56,337 nucleotides of DNA from assembly GCA_018829185.1 (NCBI GenBank), contig JAHJUI010000001.1, forward strand, positions 1 to 56,337, given 5' to 3'. Source of the DNA: Nanobdellota archaeon (GTDB lineage Archaea > Nanobdellota > Nanobdellia > SCGC-AAA011-G17 > PNOQ01). This document shows positions 34,119-40,506 of the stretch, piece after piece. A model generated the notes under the pieces. The model had not been told where the DNA came from, searched no databases, and saw nothing but the letters and a program-made list of their open reading frames with translations. A program made the translations under genes and the position numbers. The first letter of the stretch is position 1. Each line of letters opens with the position of its first letter.

Positions 34119-35696
34119 TTAATTTTTCTTTTTAATTCTTTTTTTTCTATAAAATACAAAGTAAAACAATAAACCTAAGATTACAATTAAACCAACAACA
34201 GTTAGAGCTGTTGAAGTATTAGTACCAAACAACCCATCCATTATTGCTGCACCTGTAATTCCTTCAAAACCAGTATCTGGAGTAGCTTCTTGTGCAGTTA
34301 TTTCTTCTATAACCTCTTCAGTTTCTTCTTCAACTAAGGCTTCTTCCTCAACTAAAGGTTCTTTAGTATCATTAATTCTCCCGCCAGAAGTAAATCTTGA
34401 ACTTCCGCCACCGGTAGTTACTGCTGCAGGCAATACTTCAGCACAACCATCTATATTGCTCCAATCACTCCAAGCTCCAGTAGGAGGACATACACATCTG
34501 TTTCCTTCCCAAACTCCATTAGTATTTTCACAAAGAGTAATAGGTGCAATTACACATTCCCCCGTAGGAATTAAGCAAACTTCATCATTTTCAATATCAC
34601 AATCTGAATCTTGATTACATTCACCACACCCCACATTTCCATTCCAAACAGTTAAGTCTGGACATTCACAATGAGCATGATCTGTAGGAGTATTTGCTCC
34701 CATCCAAATTCCATTTGTATTCAAACAAAGTTGTTCATCATTTACATTTCTACCTTCTAAAACAGCAAATTCTGTAAAATGAGTTATTTCAAAAGTTAAA
34801 GTGTTTGCAACTGTATCAACAATGGTTGGAATTTCAATCCAAGAGCTACCATCATGATAAGAAACATAAAGATTATTTTCATCTGCATTAGCAACAAGTA
34901 ATTCTTCCCTAGTGTAAGGCAAAGTAATTGTAATTGCCGGATCAAAAATAGTCCCATCAGCCCCAAAATCAAAAGTCTTTCCTACTAATTTTACATTTCC
35001 AACCTCAGGACTAACTGTTGGTTGTACTAATTGTCCTGTAATTGAGGTAACTCCTCCAGGAACATTTGGAATATCTAAAATAGCACTACTATAATCTATT
35101 GAAGCAGGAGTTCCAGATACAACACTAAATGACTTTTCATAAGATGTAAAATCAAAAGTTGTTGAACCTTCGAAATAAACATAACCATTGGATGGCTCAC
35201 CAAAAACAGTAGCTTTAACATTTACTGTTTTTTCAACAAAGAATCCTGGAAGTTTTGAAGCATCTATAGTTAAACTGTAAGTTATTGTTCCTGGACCACT
35301 ATCTGACCCATATCCATAACCATATCCAAAGTCCTGATAATCAGGATTACCAACTGACCCATATCCATATCCATAGCCATAACCACCATTTAAATTAGAA
35401 ATTTCAACTGAATTAACAGTTAAAAAACTACAATCATTTGTATTATCAGAATTAATCTTACAACTAAAATAATTTTCACCATCATTAAACATAAGATTTG
35501 TATAGTCTATTGGTAAAAACTCACCATCATTAACAGTAACTACAATCTCAAAGTCTTCTGTAGAATAATCAGAAAAATCAATATTATCCAAATCACCAAT
35601 ATTTACGCCAATAGCCTCTGCAGGCCCTAAAAACAATAGAATACTGATTACAAAAAAAGTTAACATAATACTAGTTAAATGTCTTTTTGCTTTCAT
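34119..35696 (-). CDS. Cell-surface protein with GYGYG repeats, Cys-rich modules and C-terminal TM
   Basis: Signal peptide, GYGYGYGYG, ITHFTEFAV domain end, Cys modules, ITGAAI-TM-RKKR. Confidence 0.85.
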   Translation of the reverse strand: MKAKRHLTSIMLTFFVISILLFLGPAEAIGVNIGDLDNIDFSDYSTEDFEIVVTVNDGEFLPIDYTNLMFNDGENYFSCKINSDNTNDCSFLTVNSVEISNLNGGYGYGYGYGSVGNPDYQDFGYGYGYGSDSGPGTITYSLTIDASKLPGFFVEKTVNVKATVFGEPSNGYVYFEGSTTFDFTSYEKSFSVVSGTPASIDYSSAILDIPNVPGGVTSITGQLVQPTVSPEVGNVKLVGKTFDFGADGTIFDPAITITLPYTREELLVANADENNLYVSYHDGSSWIEIPTIVDTVANTLTFEITHFTEFAVLEGRNVNDEQLCLNTNGIWMGANTPTDHAHCECPDLTVWNGNVGCGECNQDSDCDIENDEVCLIPTGECVIAPITLCENTNGVWEGNRCVCPPTGAWSDWSNIDGCAEVLPAAVTTGGGSSRFTSGGRINDTKEPLVEEEALVEEETEEVIEEITAQEATPDTGFEGITGAAIMDGLFGTNTSTALTVVGLIVILGLLFYFVFYRKKRIKKKN

Positions 35697-35862
35697 TTTG
35701 ATATGTCTATATATATATACATATATGCATTATCCCTCTTTTTATAAACTTTTCGGTGACAACACTTAGTAACAACATCTTTTGCATTACAAAACACCCA
35801 ATTTTCTTTTTTTGAGCAAAGCTCTAGAAAGACTTAAAAACAACAACCAATTCTACAAAAAA

Positions 35863-36183
35863 ATGCAAAAATCAATAGTAGAACTCTTCACAAGCGTAAC
35901 ATGTCCACATTGTCCTAGATCTATCCTTATGCTTAAAGAATTAGAAAGAGATGACATAGAACCAGTTTTCCATTCTGTAAACTCAAGCAATGGAAGAGAA
36001 AAAGCAGAAGAATATAAAATTCTCTCAGTACCAACATTCATAATAACAGGACCAAAAATAACAAATAAAATAGGATTAAAAAGTCCTTCATTAGAAAAAC
36101 TAAATGAGGCAATAGACATCTCACAAGGATTAAAAGAATTCCCTAAAAAAAGATCATTTTGGGATATATTTAAAAGAAAGTAA
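35863..36183 (+). CDS. Thioredoxin/glutaredoxin-like protein
   Basis: ELFTSVTCPHCP and SVPTF; start at ATG 35863. Confidence 0.88.
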   Translation: MQKSIVELFTSVTCPHCPRSILMLKELERDDIEPVFHSVNSSNGREKAEEYKILSVPTFIITGPKITNKIGLKSPSLEKLNEAIDISQGLKEFPKKRSFWDIFKRK

Positions 36184-36197
36184 TTCTAAATAAAAAC

Positions 36198-36338
36198 ATG
36201 GCAAAATGCTCATTATGCGGAAAAAGAATTGAAACAACTTTTCTAGGTAAAATTAGGGGAACTTTTTATAAGGGAAAACCAGTATGTCCAGAATGTCAAA
36301 AAACTGAATTAAATAAAAAAGTTGAAATTCCAAAATAA
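36198..36338 (+). CDS. 46-aa zinc-ribbon protein (not in ORF track)
   Basis: MAKCSLCGKRIETTFLGKIRGTFYKGKPVCPECQKTELNKKVEIPK*; two CxxC. Confidence 0.8.
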   Translation: MAKCSLCGKRIETTFLGKIRGTFYKGKPVCPECQKTELNKKVEIPK

Positions 36339-36354
36339 GCCCTTGTAGCTTAGT
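36339..36354 (+). pseudogene. Orphan tRNA 5' fragment (positions 1-16)
   Basis: GCCCTTG-TA-GCTT-AGT; 6 of 7 positions pair with CAGAGGC at 37507-37513 (one G-U pair, one C/A mismatch). Confidence 0.6.
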
Positions 36355-36397
36355 AAATAAGAAAAGTTTATAAGGAAAGAAGATAACCCCTTTTTAA

Positions 36398-36485
36398 GCC
36401 CTGATAGCTCAGGCAGTTAGAGCAGCAGATAAAAAAGCTGAATCTCGTAAACTGCAGGTCGAGGGTGCGAATCCCTCTCGGGGCT
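36398..36485 (+). tRNA. tRNA-Thr(CGT) with 14-nt non-canonical intron at 30/31 (36429-36442)
   Basis: Acceptor GCCCTGA/TCGGGGC; D-stem GCTC/GAGC; BHB GAG-CAGC-AG^A...GCTG-AA^T-CTC; spliced arm GCAGT-CTCGTAA-ACTGC; own TATA at ~36361-36373. Confidence 0.9.
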
Positions 36486-36495
36486 TTTTATTAAA

Positions 36496-37479
36496 ATGAC
36501 TAGAATCTATTTTAAAGAAGAAAAAGTAAGAAAAAAATTCTTTACAGATGTTTTAATCAATTCTAATTTCAAAACATGGAAAGAATTAAGAATTAATTTA
36601 AAGATTTCAAAAACCGCTTTAGAAAATTACAAAAATGGAAAATTAACTATACCTGGAGATTTTTATGAAAGTATTATTACCTTTTTACCTAAAAAATTAA
36701 AAGAAAGTTACAACACCCAAGTTTATTCAAAAAAAGACAACTGGGGGGCAATAGAAGGCGGAAAAAAAAATTATGAAAAAAACAAATGGATATTTGAGTT
36801 AGGTAGAAAAAAAGCATTGAAATCAATAAGAAAAATACACCAAATTTCTGATGCAGAAATAAACAAAAATTTCGAATTAGATTTTTATGAAGTTATAGGG
36901 GCATTTATTGGAGATGGATTTTTTAATAAATATGGGAGCTCTTACATTATTCAATTTGCGGGAGATTCAAGATATGATTTTGATTATTATAAAAATAAAA
37001 TTATCCCGGTGATATCTAGATTATTTGATAGAAAACCATTCATAAGGACAAAAGGAAACTGTATGTGGATTACATTTAATTCAAAAAAACTTTTTTATGT
37101 ACTAATAAAAAGATTTCATATGCCAAAAGGAAAAAAGGTTTACACTGTTAAAATCCCCGAGGAAATTTTAAAAGATAAGAATAAATTAATTTACACATTA
37201 AGGGGTATTTTTGATACAGATGGATGTATTTTTGTGGACAAAAGAAAAACTTACAAAAAACTTTATCCCAGAATAGCATTGCAATTAACTAATAAACCTA
37301 TTATAGAACAAATTTATCTTGCACTGAGCTCTTTAAATATAAAATGTGGTATATCAGAGAAAACAAGAGGTAACGCATATACAATCCAAATAAATGGTTT
37401 TAAAGAAGTAAAGAAATACATAGACACAATTGGTTTTTCAAACGAAAGACACCTTAATAGGATAAAACACTTTTCGTAA
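36496..37479 (+). CDS. Free-standing double-motif LAGLIDADG homing endonuclease
   Basis: EVIGAFIGDGFF and TLRGIFDTDGCI; C-terminal IGFSNERH; no intein splice residues. Confidence 0.92.
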   Translation: MTRIYFKEEKVRKKFFTDVLINSNFKTWKELRINLKISKTALENYKNGKLTIPGDFYESIITFLPKKLKESYNTQVYSKKDNWGAIEGGKKNYEKNKWIFELGRKKALKSIRKIHQISDAEINKNFELDFYEVIGAFIGDGFFNKYGSSYIIQFAGDSRYDFDYYKNKIIPVISRLFDRKPFIRTKGNCMWITFNSKKLFYVLIKRFHMPKGKKVYTVKIPEEILKDKNKLIYTLRGIFDTDGCIFVDKRKTYKKLYPRIALQLTNKPIIEQIYLALSSLNIKCGISEKTRGNAYTIQINGFKEVKKYIDTIGFSNERHLNRIKHFS

Positions 37480-37514
37480 AGTGGATATCCCAGGTTCGAA
37501 TCCTGGCAGAGGCT
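37474..37514 (+). pseudogene. Orphan 3' part of a tRNA-Thr(CGT) (positions 33-73)
   Basis: T-CGT-AA-AGTGG-ATATC-CCAGG-TTCGAAT-CCTGG-CAGAGGC-T; perfect T-arm. Confidence 0.85.
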
Positions 37515-37528
37515 TTATATAATAACCT

Positions 37529-37816
37529 TTAAAGAGCCATCCATAATGCATTGCGTTTTGCAACAATTCCATCAATTTCTTGGATATATAATCTTAAAGC
37601 TTCATCAGCTTCAATATCTCCCCCCAATCTTTCAGAATATCTTTCAGTTAATTTTGAAGTAAATCCCAAACTCTCCCCGCCTTCAGGGGTAAAAACACTT
37701 CCATCTACCATTCTTACTGGGCCTTCACTAACTAAAACCATTCTAAGTAAATCGTGTTTTGGGTTTATAGCCCTTAAATCTTTTTGTGCTTCTTTAACAG
37801 CTTTTACATAATTCAT
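37529..37816 (-). CDS. Hypothetical protein
   Basis: Start set at ATG 37816 (MNYVKAV) after GGAGG RBS. Confidence 0.65.
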   Translation of the reverse strand: MNYVKAVKEAQKDLRAINPKHDLLRMVLVSEGPVRMVDGSVFTPEGGESLGFTSKLTERYSERLGGDIEADEALRLYIQEIDGIVAKRNALWMAL

Positions 37817-37968
37817 TTTTGATCCTCCATTAAATCTTATTTTTAGTAATCTCCCAAATTTATAAATCTTTCTATTTGTAACCACTGCTAAGAAACAACA
37901 TAACCGAAACACTTATATACTATAGAATATAGGTTTTAACTACCTTAGTTAAGGGAGGGAAACAAAAA

Positions 37969-38865
37969 ATGAATAAAATATTAACAATATTAATGATTTT
38001 CATACTTTTAATAGTTCCACTTGCAGCTTTAGCTCAAATGGATTCAGAAGTTGAAAATCCAAATGAAACTGTTGAGGAACCAGTAGAAGAACTTCAAGAA
38101 GATGAAGCATGGTTCCCAGAAGAAGAAACTAGTGATGAAACTACTGAAGAAGAGGCTGAAGAAGAAGGAACTCAATGTACTGAAGGAATTGGCGCAATTG
38201 AGCCTTGTTATGCAGGATTTAGATTTGTTGAATGCGTAAACGGATATTGGAATGTACATGTACCTACAATAGGAAGTTGTAATGTAGAATGTATTGAAGA
38301 TTCAGATTGTTTAAGGGAACAAGTTTGTATGGAAGAAATCTATAAATGTGTAGTTGTTGAACAAGAAACTGAAGGACCTCAAAAGGAAAATCCAATTGAA
38401 GACGTACCTTTTTGGGATCCTACAAAAGAACAACTTTGTAAGGACACAGGCGGATCTTGGGTAATTGAAGTTACTACAGAAGACGTAGAAGAAGCTCATT
38501 GTGACTGTGGAGAAAATACTTGGAACAATGTTGAAGGATGTCAAGTTGTAGAAGATTCTAATGACAATGATGACAATGATAATGACAACGATAATGACAA
38601 TGGAAGTCACACTTCAGGTAGAGGGGCTATTAGAATTTACAGAGAACAAGAAGCTGAAGAAGAAACTCCAGTTGAAGAAGAAGCTACTGAAGAGGTTATA
38701 GAAGAAACAACTGAACAAAAAGGTTTCTTAAACCAAATTACAGGTTTTTTCGGAGCATACGGAGATAAAGTAAGTCAAGAAGCTAGTTACTTTTTATACC
38801 CACTTTTAGGTATTTTACTAGTTGGTTTAGTTATCTTTGGTGTTAGACAAGTTTCTTTACATTAA
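37969..38865 (+). CDS. Acidic Cys-rich surface protein with C-terminal TM
   Basis: Signal peptide, CxxDxDC, LCxxTGGxW module, (ND)n tract, ITGF-TM. Confidence 0.8.
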   Translation: MNKILTILMIFILLIVPLAALAQMDSEVENPNETVEEPVEELQEDEAWFPEEETSDETTEEEAEEEGTQCTEGIGAIEPCYAGFRFVECVNGYWNVHVPTIGSCNVECIEDSDCLREQVCMEEIYKCVVVEQETEGPQKENPIEDVPFWDPTKEQLCKDTGGSWVIEVTTEDVEEAHCDCGENTWNNVEGCQVVEDSNDNDDNDNDNDNDNGSHTSGRGAIRIYREQEAEEETPVEEEATEEVIEETTEQKGFLNQITGFFGAYGDKVSQEASYFLYPLLGILLVGLVIFGVRQVSLH

Positions 38866-38942
38866 ATTTTTTCTTTTTTTCTTTTTAATTAATTCTTAGA
38901 ATAAAAACTTTTATAAATCAACTCTTTCTCAGATTTTACTAT

Positions 38943-39139
38943 GTCGGGGTGCCGGAGTCTGGAAAAAATCTCCATGAGAAATTATGAGATATTCTAGCGG
39001 GCAGGTCCGGATTAACGAAAGGTGATCTGGTGCTAAACTTAAGTTTTCCAGGAAAAAAGAAATCCTGTGGCTTAGTGCCTACGAGGGATATCTAAACATT
39101 TGATTGTTGGATACTCGAATTCAAATCCCTTCCCCGACA
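38943..39139 (+). tRNA. tRNA-Leu(TAA) with four introns (~38967-38997, 39006-39036, 39044-39061, 39088-39119)
   Basis: Spliced product GTCGGGG-TG-CCGGAGTCTGGAAAACGG-G-CAGGA-CTTAAGA-TCCTG-TGGCTTAGTGCCTAC-GAGGG-TTCAAAT-CCCTT-CCCCGAC-A; each junction forms a BHB or relaxed BHB. Confidence 0.88.
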
Positions 39140-39230
39140 TATTTTTTTCTTACACTGTGACAAAGTTATATAACTATAAAAAACCCAATTAGTTAATTTT
39201 AAAAATAAGTACATTATTGTAATTCTTATT

Positions 39231-39304
39231 GCCTCAGTGGCTTAGCCTGGTAGAGCACCGCATTGGTAATGCGGAGGTCGGGGGTTCAATTCCCCTCTGA
39301 GGCT
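39231..39304 (+). tRNA. tRNA-Thr(GGT), intronless
   Basis: GCCTCAG/CTGAGGC acceptor; CCGCA-TTGGTAA-TGCGG anticodon arm. Confidence 0.96.
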
Positions 39305-39344
39305 TTCAAAACCTTTAAAAACCCCTTATTTTACCTGTCTAACA

Positions 39345-39803
39345 ATGGATATCAAAAAACAATACAAAAAAATAGAAAATAAATTCAAATTACCTAATTT
39401 TGATAAATTCGATAAAGAATTTGAGATATCTACCTTAGATACAGATGATTTTCTATTAAGAAATGTAAGAAGAAGAATGAACAATAAACTAACTTTCTTT
39501 ACTCAAATCTTTGACACAATTTTATTTCCAAATCCAAATTCATTAATTTCAATGCACGAATCAAAATCTTGTTCAGAAGAAGAAAAAATCGAAATAATGA
39601 AGTTCTACAATAAATTAATGATTTTAGAAAGAGAAGCACTTTCCTTTGATATTGAACCAGATGACAAAAAAGAAGCAGAATTCATAAACAAACTTTGGAA
39701 ACAATGGACAGAGATAAAAAAAGAAACAAATAAATTAGTTGAAAAAATGAAAGAATCTTGGAAAGACGAAGATAAGAAAATTAAGAATCATTATTTTGGC
39801 TAA
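39345..39803 (+). CDS. Hypothetical helical protein
   Basis: 152-aa ORF upstream of the pilus operon. Confidence 0.75.
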   Translation: MDIKKQYKKIENKFKLPNFDKFDKEFEISTLDTDDFLLRNVRRRMNNKLTFFTQIFDTILFPNPNSLISMHESKSCSEEEKIEIMKFYNKLMILEREALSFDIEPDDKKEAEFINKLWKQWTEIKKETNKLVEKMKESWKDEDKKIKNHYFG

Positions 39804-39840
39804 AGAAAATTATATAAACACTAATTCTTTGTTTAATTAC

Positions 39841-40506
39841 ATGAATAAAAGAGGCCAATTTTACTTAATCATAGTTTTAGTTCTAGCTTTTTTAATCTAC
39901 GGAGTTACTGGAAAAACAAATAGCATAGAAAAACCAATTTTATTTCAAGATTTTTCAGATCTTTCAGAAAATTATGTTACTGAATCAAAAAATATTGTCA
40001 ATGATGCATTGTACAGTAACAGTCTAAATGTAGCAACAGATTTAGATTCTTTCACACAAGAATTTTTAGTTTATGCAAAACAAAAAAATCCTTCAGTAGG
40101 AATTGTTTACGTTTATAAAGAAGGAATAGATGTGAGGGTAGCAAATTATTTAGATAATCCAATTGCAACATATGATCGAACAATTTCCGCTGCAAATCAA
40201 GAAGTAGTAGAAAGAGTAGTTTTTAATGTAGGTGGAAAAGAATTCGTACACCAAGTTCCATTAAAATTACAGGACTTTGGAACAGAATGGTATACTTCAT
40301 CTGGAGGCCTAGTACCACTACAAATTAGTGTAGGGGGAATTTTACATAATTTTGGAGATTTTTCTGGAACTGGTCCAGAATTTAAAGTGCTTGTTAGATC
40401 AGAAACAACTGAAGATACATTCGATATAGGAAATGTAGACCAAGGAATCACATACTCGCCACCATCAAAAGATTTAAATAATGTAATTCAAATTTACAGA
40501 TCATAA
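39841..40506 (+). CDS. Class III signal peptide protein (minor pilin-like)
   Basis: MNKRG/QFYLIIVLVL; start at ATG 39841. Confidence 0.75.
   Translation: MNKRGQFYLIIVLVLAFLIYGVTGKTNSIEKPILFQDFSDLSENYVTESKNIVNDALYSNSLNVATDLDSFTQEFLVYAKQKNPSVGIVYVYKEGIDVRVANYLDNPIATYDRTISAANQEVVERVVFNVGGKEFVHQVPLKLQDFGTEWYTSSGGLVPLQISVGGILHNFGDFSGTGPEFKVLVRSETTEDTFDIGNVDQGITYSPPSKDLNNVIQIYRS

Follow-up and report, generated by a model that had tools for sequence, protein, structure and literature searches.

The stretch of DNA analysed here, 56,337 nucleotides (nt) long and called the window below, is contig C20 of genome G000 from a Nanobdellota archaeon, an assembly of 826,748 bp in 27 contigs that is 96% complete. 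Its subject is a cassette of about 1.1 kb, extending from 36355 to 37467, which holds a putative promoter, a complete tRNA-Thr(CGT) gene and the gene of a LAGLIDADG nuclease, and which lies between two pieces of another tRNA-Thr(CGT) gene. All of the parts are on the plus strand.

The layout of the locus is as follows. A zinc-ribbon open reading frame (ORF) of 46 amino acids (aa) occupies 36198-36338; it was recognized by tblastn synteny and by a match to Zn_ribbon_8 (E 5e-4) that is below the Pfam cut-off. On the base directly after its TAA stop begins a 5′ stump, GCCCTTGTAGCTTAGT, at 36339-36354, which corresponds to positions 1-16 of a resident tRNA-Thr(CGT). The left end of the cassette (36355-36397), a purine-rich stretch with a TATA-like box, aligns with L050 (a metagenome contig of a strain that is about 96% identical), with the relative G156 and with a segment of the relative G048. 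The box itself, TTTATAAG, was read by eye at 36367-36374 and ends about 24 nt 5′ of the inner tRNA. We regard 36355-36397 as a putative promoter for both the inner tRNA and the nuclease; a TTAAATA box in the 3′ end of the zinc-ribbon ORF, about 27 nt before the stump, is possibly the promoter of the resident tRNA. The intact tRNA-Thr(CGT) follows at 36398-36485 (exon 1, 36398-36428; intron, 36429-36442; exon 2, 36443-36485), separated by the 10-nt spacer TTTTATTAAA (36486-36495) from a double-motif LAGLIDADG ORF of 327 aa with its own ATG (36496-37479). Together with the tRNA’s discriminator T, the spacer makes a run of five T before the nuclease ATG, a possible leaky archaeal terminator. Last comes the 3′ remnant of the resident gene (37468-37514; positions about 28-76), comprising the anticodon arm, the variable loop, the T arm and the 3′ strand of the acceptor stem. 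The nuclease ORF has no stop of its own and takes its last three codons and its stop from this remnant: the TAA at 37477-37479 is the A36-A38-like end of the CGT anticodon loop. A reading made earlier from the sequence alone (the sequence-only reading) had listed the stump, the TATA-like box, the intron-bearing tRNA, the 327-aa ORF and the 3′ part in this order, with the stop codon drawn from the remnant’s loop, and all of this was confirmed.

The assembly is independently backed, since the same junctions are present in the separate contig L050. In addition, Logan contigs of X5, a run from another study, match 36035-36373, 36430-36697 and 37389-37900 without a difference. The sequencing runs containing the window stretch are groundwater metagenomes. 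For tRNA searches we used the Rfam tRNA model (cut-off 29 bits) and ARAGORN with and without introns, and for protein domains Pfam.

The broken tRNA gene and the tRNA inside it

Sequence comparison identifies the two outer pieces as remnants of a broken resident tRNA-Thr(CGT) gene. Across the order, tRNA-Thr(CGT) has the zinc-ribbon ORF as its conserved neighbour on the left, and an intact tRNA-Thr(CGT) begins 0-38 nt after that ORF in G050, G037, G044, G048, G180, G221, G039, G235 and G192. The closest informative relative is L051, a metagenome contig in which the neighbouring thioredoxin is 65% identical in amino acids and the zinc-ribbon DNA 74% identical. There, the TAG of the zinc-ribbon gene is directly followed by a 75-nt intact tRNA-Thr(CGT) and then by another gene, and no nuclease is present. 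The site is also empty, with no nuclease match in the fetched flanks, in G050, G039, G235 and G192. Hence the empty allele that the sequence-only reading had said should be looked for, an intact tRNA-Thr(CGT) right after the zinc-ribbon gene, does exist. Filled alleles of the zinc-ribbon-adjacent site were found in the window’s genome and in L050.

The 3′ remnant is well preserved. Its T arm is perfect (CCAGG/TTCGAAT/CCTGG), and its acceptor strand reads CAGAGGC. In a BLAST comparison, the 3′ part of the L051 tRNA matches window positions 37472-37517 with 93.5% identity over 46 nt (E 1.3e-14). Counted from the 3′ end, remnant and L051 tRNA agree at 22/25 and 33/36 positions, while the remnant and the inner tRNA agree at only 15/25; the T stem is paired at 5/5 positions. 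An exact search of the window for the 3′ half of the L051 tRNA gave no match, owing to a 1-nt insertion and mismatches. One of the differences between the remnant and L051 is a compensated pair of the T stem (A-T versus C-G), from which it follows that both genes were functional when they diverged. The anticodon loop of the remnant has 8 nt, with one T more than that of L051. Compared with L051, the window lacks approximately tRNA positions 17-27, a shorter gap than the 17-32 first estimated.

The stump is identical at 15/16 bases to the 5′ ends of the G050 and G048 tRNAs and at 12/16 to that of L051. A 16-mer search allowing at most two mismatches found it as the sole match in the window, where 0.04 would be expected by chance. 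Between the window and L050, two of its 16 bases differ, though the strains are about 96% identical over the region. Nevertheless, the stump is tRNA-like both here and in G156, and the nucleases of these two genomes share 57% of their amino acids. Since the stump changes fast between strains and is still tRNA-like in both genomes, renewal by repeated insertion fits better than one ancient event. The comparisons thus fit a young stump beside an old cassette, with repeated fresh insertion.

In another reading, a working tRNA is made from the stump and the 3′ part as its exons or halves, the 1.1-kb insert being a giant bulge-helix-bulge intron or the tRNA being split. There are unusually placed introns in this genome, such as the D-loop intron of tRNA-Thr(TGT), near the same tRNA position, and LAGLIDADG genes do occur inside archaeal rRNA introns (PMC6125680). 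But the joined product would lack positions 17-27, that is, the 3′ strand of the D stem; its anticodon loop would have 8 nt, and a C.A mismatch would fall in the acceptor stem. In L050, the remnant’s anticodon stem is altered further, with the 7/57 differences clustered there; G156 has no 3′ part whatever, and the remnants elsewhere range from 12 to 47 nt. Complementary leader sequences of the split-tRNA type were looked for by eye only. Since the pieces lack positions 17-27 and the halves decay between strains, we rejected this reading, which we find scarcely credible.

The inner tRNA is a different gene. It scores 45.6 bits with the Rfam model (E 1.2e-7), with 23 nt in the anticodon-loop region where the model has 9. 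With introns allowed, ARAGORN calls it Thr(cgt) with a 14-nt intron; without introns, it reports “tRNA-???”. Its D-loop is without GG and its T-loop is TGCGAAT. It is 59% identical (44/74) to the L051 tRNA, 87% identical to the tRNA in the G156 cassette, and 79-81% identical to the native, nuclease-free, zinc-ribbon-adjacent tRNA-Thr(CGT) of G039 (family f16) and G192 (f9), which bears out the earlier statement that its sequence is distinct from that of the broken gene. The inner tRNA, G039 and G156 (family f28) have in common that GG is missing from the D-loop, that the T-loop is TGCRAAT and that an intron at the same site ends in GCTGAA. By sequence, then, the inner tRNA is shown to be foreign to this lineage and of a kind that occurs natively in other families of the order. 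In the modelled fold, the intron region is of a relaxed bulge-helix-bulge shape: a 3-bp GAG/CUC helix, a 3-nt AAU bulge, a 4-bp CAGC/GCUG helix and a loop, with the same bases in G156 and G039. The acceptor stem shows a compensated pair at 4-69 (C-G in the window, T-A in G156), and pair 5-68 is T.G in the window and C-G in L050. The sequence-only reading had called this tRNA an isoacceptor; having the same anticodon, it is an isodecoder.

ARAGORN found no other tRNA-Thr(CGT) in the genome. The genome also has a tRNA-Thr(GGT) at window positions 39231-39304 and an intron-bearing tRNA-Thr(TGT) at C26:3226-3328. The latter carries a D-loop insert of about 29 nt after position ~15, close to the tRNA position at which the cassette interrupts tRNA-Thr(CGT), and the Rfam model matched only its 3′ 61 nt. 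The tRNA-Thr genes of several families in this order (window 36398-36485; L022, L057, L058 and L059) have AGTTAG or AGTCAG in place of the D-loop GG, and T-G-C rather than T-T-C in the T-loop. These paired changes look like a co-varying tertiary pair of the tRNA elbow.

The nuclease and its association with tRNA genes

Pfam LAGLIDADG_3 matches the 327-aa protein at 36.6 bits (cut-off 22.5), over residues 234-313 only. Both motifs are present, IGDGFF with D140, which is invariant in 8/8 orthologues, and FDTDGCIF with D242, which is D or E in 8/8. The best solved match is the intein endonuclease PI-PfuI (1dq3; E 1e-6), covering residues 126-318 and both motif domains. Residues 1-125 form an extra N-terminal domain that has no Pfam family even at E<=10 and that showed, in an atlas comparison, a sub-threshold likeness to helix-turn-helix structures (template-modelling score 0.41-0.42). 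Over the 984 nt of the ORF, the window and L050 differ at 41 positions. The synonymous divergence (dS) is 0.17, the nonsynonymous divergence (dN) 0.017 and dN/dS 0.10, values that indicate purifying selection. Because both acidic motif residues are conserved and dN/dS is 0.10, the nuclease looks active. It is also free-standing, that is, outside any self-splicing intron, bulge-helix-bulge intron or intein: an Rfam search of 35500-40000 at E<=10 found no group I intron or other intron family, the flanking pieces cannot form a tRNA, and the ORF has its own ATG.

Homologues at E<=1e-20 are present in 57 of the 240 genomes of the order and in 8/24 of the window’s own family, and they occur in other orders of the class as well. 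We examined 36 loci, 30 from the order-level homologue search (the window included) and six new ones from a class-level search. A co-oriented tRNA adjoins the nuclease in 26 of the 36, where adjoining means a distance of 8-74 nt from the end of an upstream tRNA to the ATG, an overlap of the tRNA with the final 9-81 nt of the ORF or, at one locus, a tRNA start 2 nt past the stop. The other 10 include three loci cut by contig ends and one pseudogene. At five loci the stop codon, TAG or TAA, is formed by tRNA positions 13-15, and at L026, L028, L036 and L039 a 3′ remnant was seen by eye beyond an intact downstream tRNA. In a maximum-likelihood tree, the enzymes cluster according to tRNA species, into Ala, Thr-TGT, Thr-GGT and two Thr-CGT groups. 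The tree has 33 rows, of which the long branches own_C2 (a wrong-frame translation with internal stops) and own_C26 (with a stop read through) were disregarded, so that 31 rows stand. In it, the nucleases of the window, L050, G048 and G156 make up one clade (support 100/99). Broken copies with internal stops were found in G519, G175 and G012. A scan of genome contigs with a single nuclease protein gave no match, and the same scan with a three-sequence alignment found only G048.

This association bears on a reading in which the nuclease is a mere passenger and the locus arose by other recombination at a tRNA gene, by way of an integrase-type element or of illegitimate rearrangement. Integration into tRNA genes is common, and gene content does switch directly after the remnant between the window and L050. 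Against these stand the 26/36 loci at which the same nuclease family lies against broken or intact tRNAs, the absence of an integrase or other recombinase from the 1.1-kb insert, and the absence of the direct repeat of the tRNA 3′ end that an integrase would be expected to leave. We consider the passenger reading very unlikely.

It is also conceivable that the nuclease has been domesticated in tRNA clusters, where it would serve gene conversion or turnover of tRNA genes or act as a DNA-binding regulator, the broken tRNA being a fossil. The low dN/dS, the long-lived association with tRNAs across the order and the class, the clades that track tRNA identity and the short, decayed remnants that are all that is left at some loci would agree with such a role. 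Purifying selection, however, is equally expected of an active homing enzyme. Moreover, the distribution is patchy, relatives have empty alleles, the window’s remnant is nearly undecayed (33/36), and the broken copies are as one would expect for a selfish gene that passes through rounds of gain and decay. Domestication therefore seems to us a poor prospect.

The cassette recurs outside the window. In L050, the order of parts is the same. G156, with its 57% identical nuclease, has a stump GCCTCTGTAGCTTAAT and a promoter of the AAGTAAAAATTTATAAAC type, then a tRNA that matches the window’s inner tRNA in type and also has an intron, with the nuclease 7 nt behind it; its upstream gene differs from that of the window, and it has no 3′ remnant. 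In G331, which belongs to another order and whose nuclease is about 39% identical, a stump (GCCTCGG...) directly adjoins an intact tRNA-Thr(CGT) that has another acceptor. A promoter and the nuclease come next, and then a 3′ fragment; its acceptor strand, CCGAGGC, is complementary to the stump at 7/7 positions. Of the stump-tRNA-nuclease arrangements that the sequence-only reading had proposed to survey, G156 has the same stump-promoter-tRNA-nuclease cassette, and G331 has a related one with its parts in another order. In G230, an intact intron-bearing tRNA-Thr(CGT), a promoter and the nuclease precede a 3′ half that starts from position 27. As it is the sole other instance in which the remnant keeps an anticodon, and both of its anticodons are CGT, the expectation that anticodons would match holds there. 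G037 has a 35-nt remnant, and shorter ones were seen by eye in G221, G044 and G070.

In all four remnants of at least 25 nt (G000, G037, G230 and G331), the last 25 bases agree with the neighbouring intact tRNA at only 15-16 positions, and the T stem is paired 5/5. The low identity combined with the intact T stem indicates that the remnant and the working gene stem from different functional tRNAs and that the remnant is not a decayed local duplicate.

A segment of G048 aligns with the stump and promoter of the window, and G048 and G331 have a decayed stump-like stretch ending in GGATAT before the intact tRNA. Stump-like motifs about 56 nt before the ATG in G037, G048, G070, G176, G114 and G148 were considered as decayed stumps and not counted, because a similar CCTTATAGTTAA motif occurs in a nuclease-free tRNA spacer of the window’s own genome (C13:9374-9390); they may be a promoter-proximal motif.

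The window’s genome has three further nuclease copies that touch tRNAs. Among its paralogues at C2:19847-20519 and C16:30989-31642, one has a stop codon overlapping the first bases of tRNA-Gln(TTG), and the other has an internal TGA and is convergent with tRNA-Met. At C13:9254-9493 and C26:20238-21194, an intron-bearing tRNA, a tRNA-Glu(TTC) and a zinc-ribbon-like gene are duplicated with 75-77% identity. In the C26 copy, a LAGLIDADG gene separates the two tRNAs, and the tRNA-Glu contains three extra inserts; by its sequence, the duplication gives a filled and an empty paralogous site in one genome. Upstream of several nuclease genes, about 20 nt before the TATA box, is a repeat TGTCA...TGTCA (or GTGACA...GTGACA) followed by GGACC or GCACGG. 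It was noted upstream of the ATG at L035, L036, L037 and L039 and at C2:19785-19810 of the window’s genome.

A cassette proposed to carry its own replacement

We propose, as the probable explanation of these arrangements, that a free-standing LAGLIDADG homing cassette broke the resident tRNA-Thr(CGT) gene of this DPANN archaeon, took the place of positions 17-27 and supplies a replacement gene. The nuclease would cut the D-arm and anticodon-stem DNA of nuclease-free tRNA-Thr(CGT) genes, and repair would copy the cassette from a filled allele. The carried tRNA would restore the decoding of ACG. It would itself escape cutting, as its D-loop and anticodon stem differ and its intron interrupts the anticodon-stem DNA. 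Expression may proceed from the single TATA promoter as a tRNA-mRNA co-transcript of tRNA and nuclease, from which 3′ processing of the tRNA would free an almost leaderless nuclease mRNA. The oligo-T after the tRNA could damp read-through and keep nuclease expression low. The original suggestion that such an element spares its host without splicing needs a correction, in that the substitute tRNA itself depends on archaeal intron splicing.

Several observations weigh against this proposal. About 11 nt of the target are deleted, and classical homing is precise. The stump’s acceptor strand, GCCCTTG, faces the remnant’s CAGAGGC, which needs GCCTCTG; the misfit is at acceptor bases 4-5. The pairing of 6/7 positions claimed at the outset is reached only by counting one G.U, and the remaining position is a C.A mismatch. 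Either, therefore, the two pieces may come from different gene copies, or the stump may have drifted or have been co-converted from a donor. As to the suggested use of the old tRNA ends as homology arms, the stump is short, at 16 nt, and its acceptor bases fit the G048/G050 type better than the L051 type. ACG makes up 3.1% of the Thr codons in the long ORFs of the genome. With ACG rare and a tRNA-Thr(TGT) gene present, the price of losing the resident gene may be low and the sparing of the host less important than assumed. The proposal leaves unexplained why the tRNA lies exactly between the promoter and the ATG. A nuclease identity of 57% across families, taken alone, separates neither vertical nor horizontal descent. 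We found no RNA run that contains the stretch. Nor, among the contigs compared from four runs, in which uncovered parts are uninformative, was there a contig joining an empty allele.

A further difficulty comes from six relatives (G048, G037, G044, G180, G221 and G230) in which an intact tRNA-Thr(CGT) precedes the promoter and the nuclease and is not enclosed by any visible stump; at these loci it is not necessarily cargo. One of them, G048, sits in the window’s own nuclease clade, although the support for that fork is only 88/36. In G048, a promoter-leader homologous to that of the window abuts the ATG directly, with the intact tRNA upstream. These loci favour a different reading, in which only the nuclease gene, with its promoter, is mobile, and the intact tRNA is a pre-existing tandem copy or a locally rearranged one, the insertion being old and followed by shuffling. 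The T-rich repeats that flank the window’s tRNA could likewise mark a secondary insertion. However, in the window, L050 and G156 the inner tRNA lies within the stump and remnant borders, as it does in G331 in another order of parts. It is foreign to the nearest relative’s resident gene, with 59% identity as against the remnant’s 92%. Compensated stem differences would also be unexpected of a local duplicate. On balance, we think it unlikely that the tRNA is not cargo in the window.

How the proposed cassette relates to known mobile systems can be considered next. Free-standing nucleases such as T4 SegF, and a cyanophage psbA nuclease that lies beside an intron, reportedly cut alleles that lack them, in what is called intronless or collaborative homing. 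What protects the resident allele in such homing is either a divergent sequence or an intron lying within the site. The replacement tRNA in the window has both, and we infer its protection from them; unlike in those systems, the protected gene would travel inside the cassette. Integrative elements, for their part, use tRNA genes as insertion sites and make the gene whole again by means of a 3′ end that they carry. The target is alike, as is the restoring of function by element-borne sequence, whereas here there is no recombinase and no att-type direct repeat, and a whole tRNA is supplied. The archaeal LAGLIDADG genes reported to date lie in rRNA introns or inteins. Their enzymes (PI-PfuI and those of rRNA introns) share the fold family, the two motifs per chain and conserved targets in the translation apparatus. 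In contrast to these, no self-splicing or bulge-helix-bulge element surrounds the window’s nuclease, and a spare gene rather than splicing would spare the host. A survey (PMC6125680) counts 39 archaeal group I introns, all in rRNA, of which 21 have LAGLIDADG ORFs.

Two systems come closer. In fungal mitochondria, mobile endonuclease ORFs (in atp6 of Allomyces macrogynus and in atp6, atp9, cox2 and nad3 of Glomus) insert together with a foreign copy of the gene end, and the native end is left downstream; the native piece is 91-98% identical to a relative’s gene and the inserted piece 64-81% (PMC3630166). The likeness to the window is threefold: a LAGLIDADG or GIY-YIG ORF lies within a host gene, with a foreign replacement upstream and a native remnant downstream; the native remnant is closer to the relative than the inserted copy is, here 92-93% versus 59%; and the ORF can be without a stop of its own or run in phase with the host sequence. 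The differences are that the host gene here is a tRNA gene in an archaeal chromosome, that a 5′ stump is left and not reused, and that the replacement, which has an archaeal intron, is a complete gene under its own promoter and not an in-frame fusion of a 3′ end. The other system is SegB of phage T4, a free-standing GIY-YIG homing endonuclease in a tRNA gene cluster, whose site includes conserved tRNA-gene sequence and whose homing brings neighbouring tRNA genes along and displaces the tRNA region of the recipient (PMC2330249). The two share a free-standing nuclease gene among tRNA genes. SegB is a phage-borne GIY-YIG enzyme with a T-arm motif as target, whereas here a LAGLIDADG enzyme sits in an archaeal chromosome at a break in the D arm and anticodon stem, and the broken target persists as stump and remnant. 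A full-text literature search listed no report of LAGLIDADG genes that stand free at archaeal tRNA genes; supplements, which were outside its scope, may hold annotations. The principle is already known from fungal mitochondria and T4 SegB.

If the proposal is true, a homing nuclease has colonized an essential-type RNA gene of a cellular chromosome without an intron or intein, by way of a spare gene, and a strategy of fungal mitochondrial protein genes and of the T4 tRNA region extends to archaeal chromosomes. tRNA genes would then move between lineages as the cargo of a selfish element, which would bear on tRNA phylogenies and on the mosaic isodecoders of DPANN archaea. Mobile nucleases would also be connected with the unusually many disrupted tRNA genes that small archaea possess. 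The enzymes would recognize tRNA-gene sites on a 20-bp scale, and the Thr-CGT, Thr-GGT, Thr-TGT and Ala clades would form a series for studying how LAGLIDADG specificity evolves.

It is tempting to go further and to see in this class-wide DPANN LAGLIDADG family a standing system of horizontal tRNA-gene replacement, in which each clade homes into one tRNA species, overwrites it with a foreign isodecoder and leaves stumps, and in which an arms race selects tRNA genes whose DNA has ceased to match the nuclease site, which would be a cause of the many interrupted tRNA genes of small archaea. The D-loop intron of tRNA-Thr(TGT), the anticodon-stem intron of the cassette tRNA and the co-varying D-loop and T-loop sequences would be candidate products of such a race. 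We regard this extension as speculative and rather doubtful.

Surroundings of the locus

Identity between the window and L050 is stepped, being 98.6% over the upstream 3.5 kb, 95.9% in the cassette region and 93.4% in the downstream block, which suggests recombination around the locus. Directly 3′ of the remnant (window 37515-37530 versus L050 6650-7280), the gene content differs between the strains, with a 96-aa minus-strand ORF without a Pfam family in the window and a different small ORF in L050. The switch at the tRNA end marks a rearrangement breakpoint. A variant strain, X7, seen in contigs from sequencing runs, also departs from the window sequence just 3′ of the remnant.

A promoter-like stretch of about 40 nt at 37858-37900 (TTTATAAAT and its flanks) has dozens of matches, with 85-100% identity, in most related genomes; by this distribution, it is a widely shared promoter or regulatory motif. 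The tRNA locus is flanked by cysteine-rich, acidic, low-complexity ORFs at 34119-35696 (minus strand) and 37969-38865 (plus strand), which have CxxTxGxW-like motifs and C-terminal membrane anchors in common. At the other end of the window, ARAGORN called a tRNA-Lys with a 590-nt intron at 3-682 on the minus strand, which we rejected as false, as it lies over an FtsZ-like coding region. After the stop of the FtsZ-like gene, near 225-285, is a small GC-rich hairpin (GCGGGT...ACCCGC).

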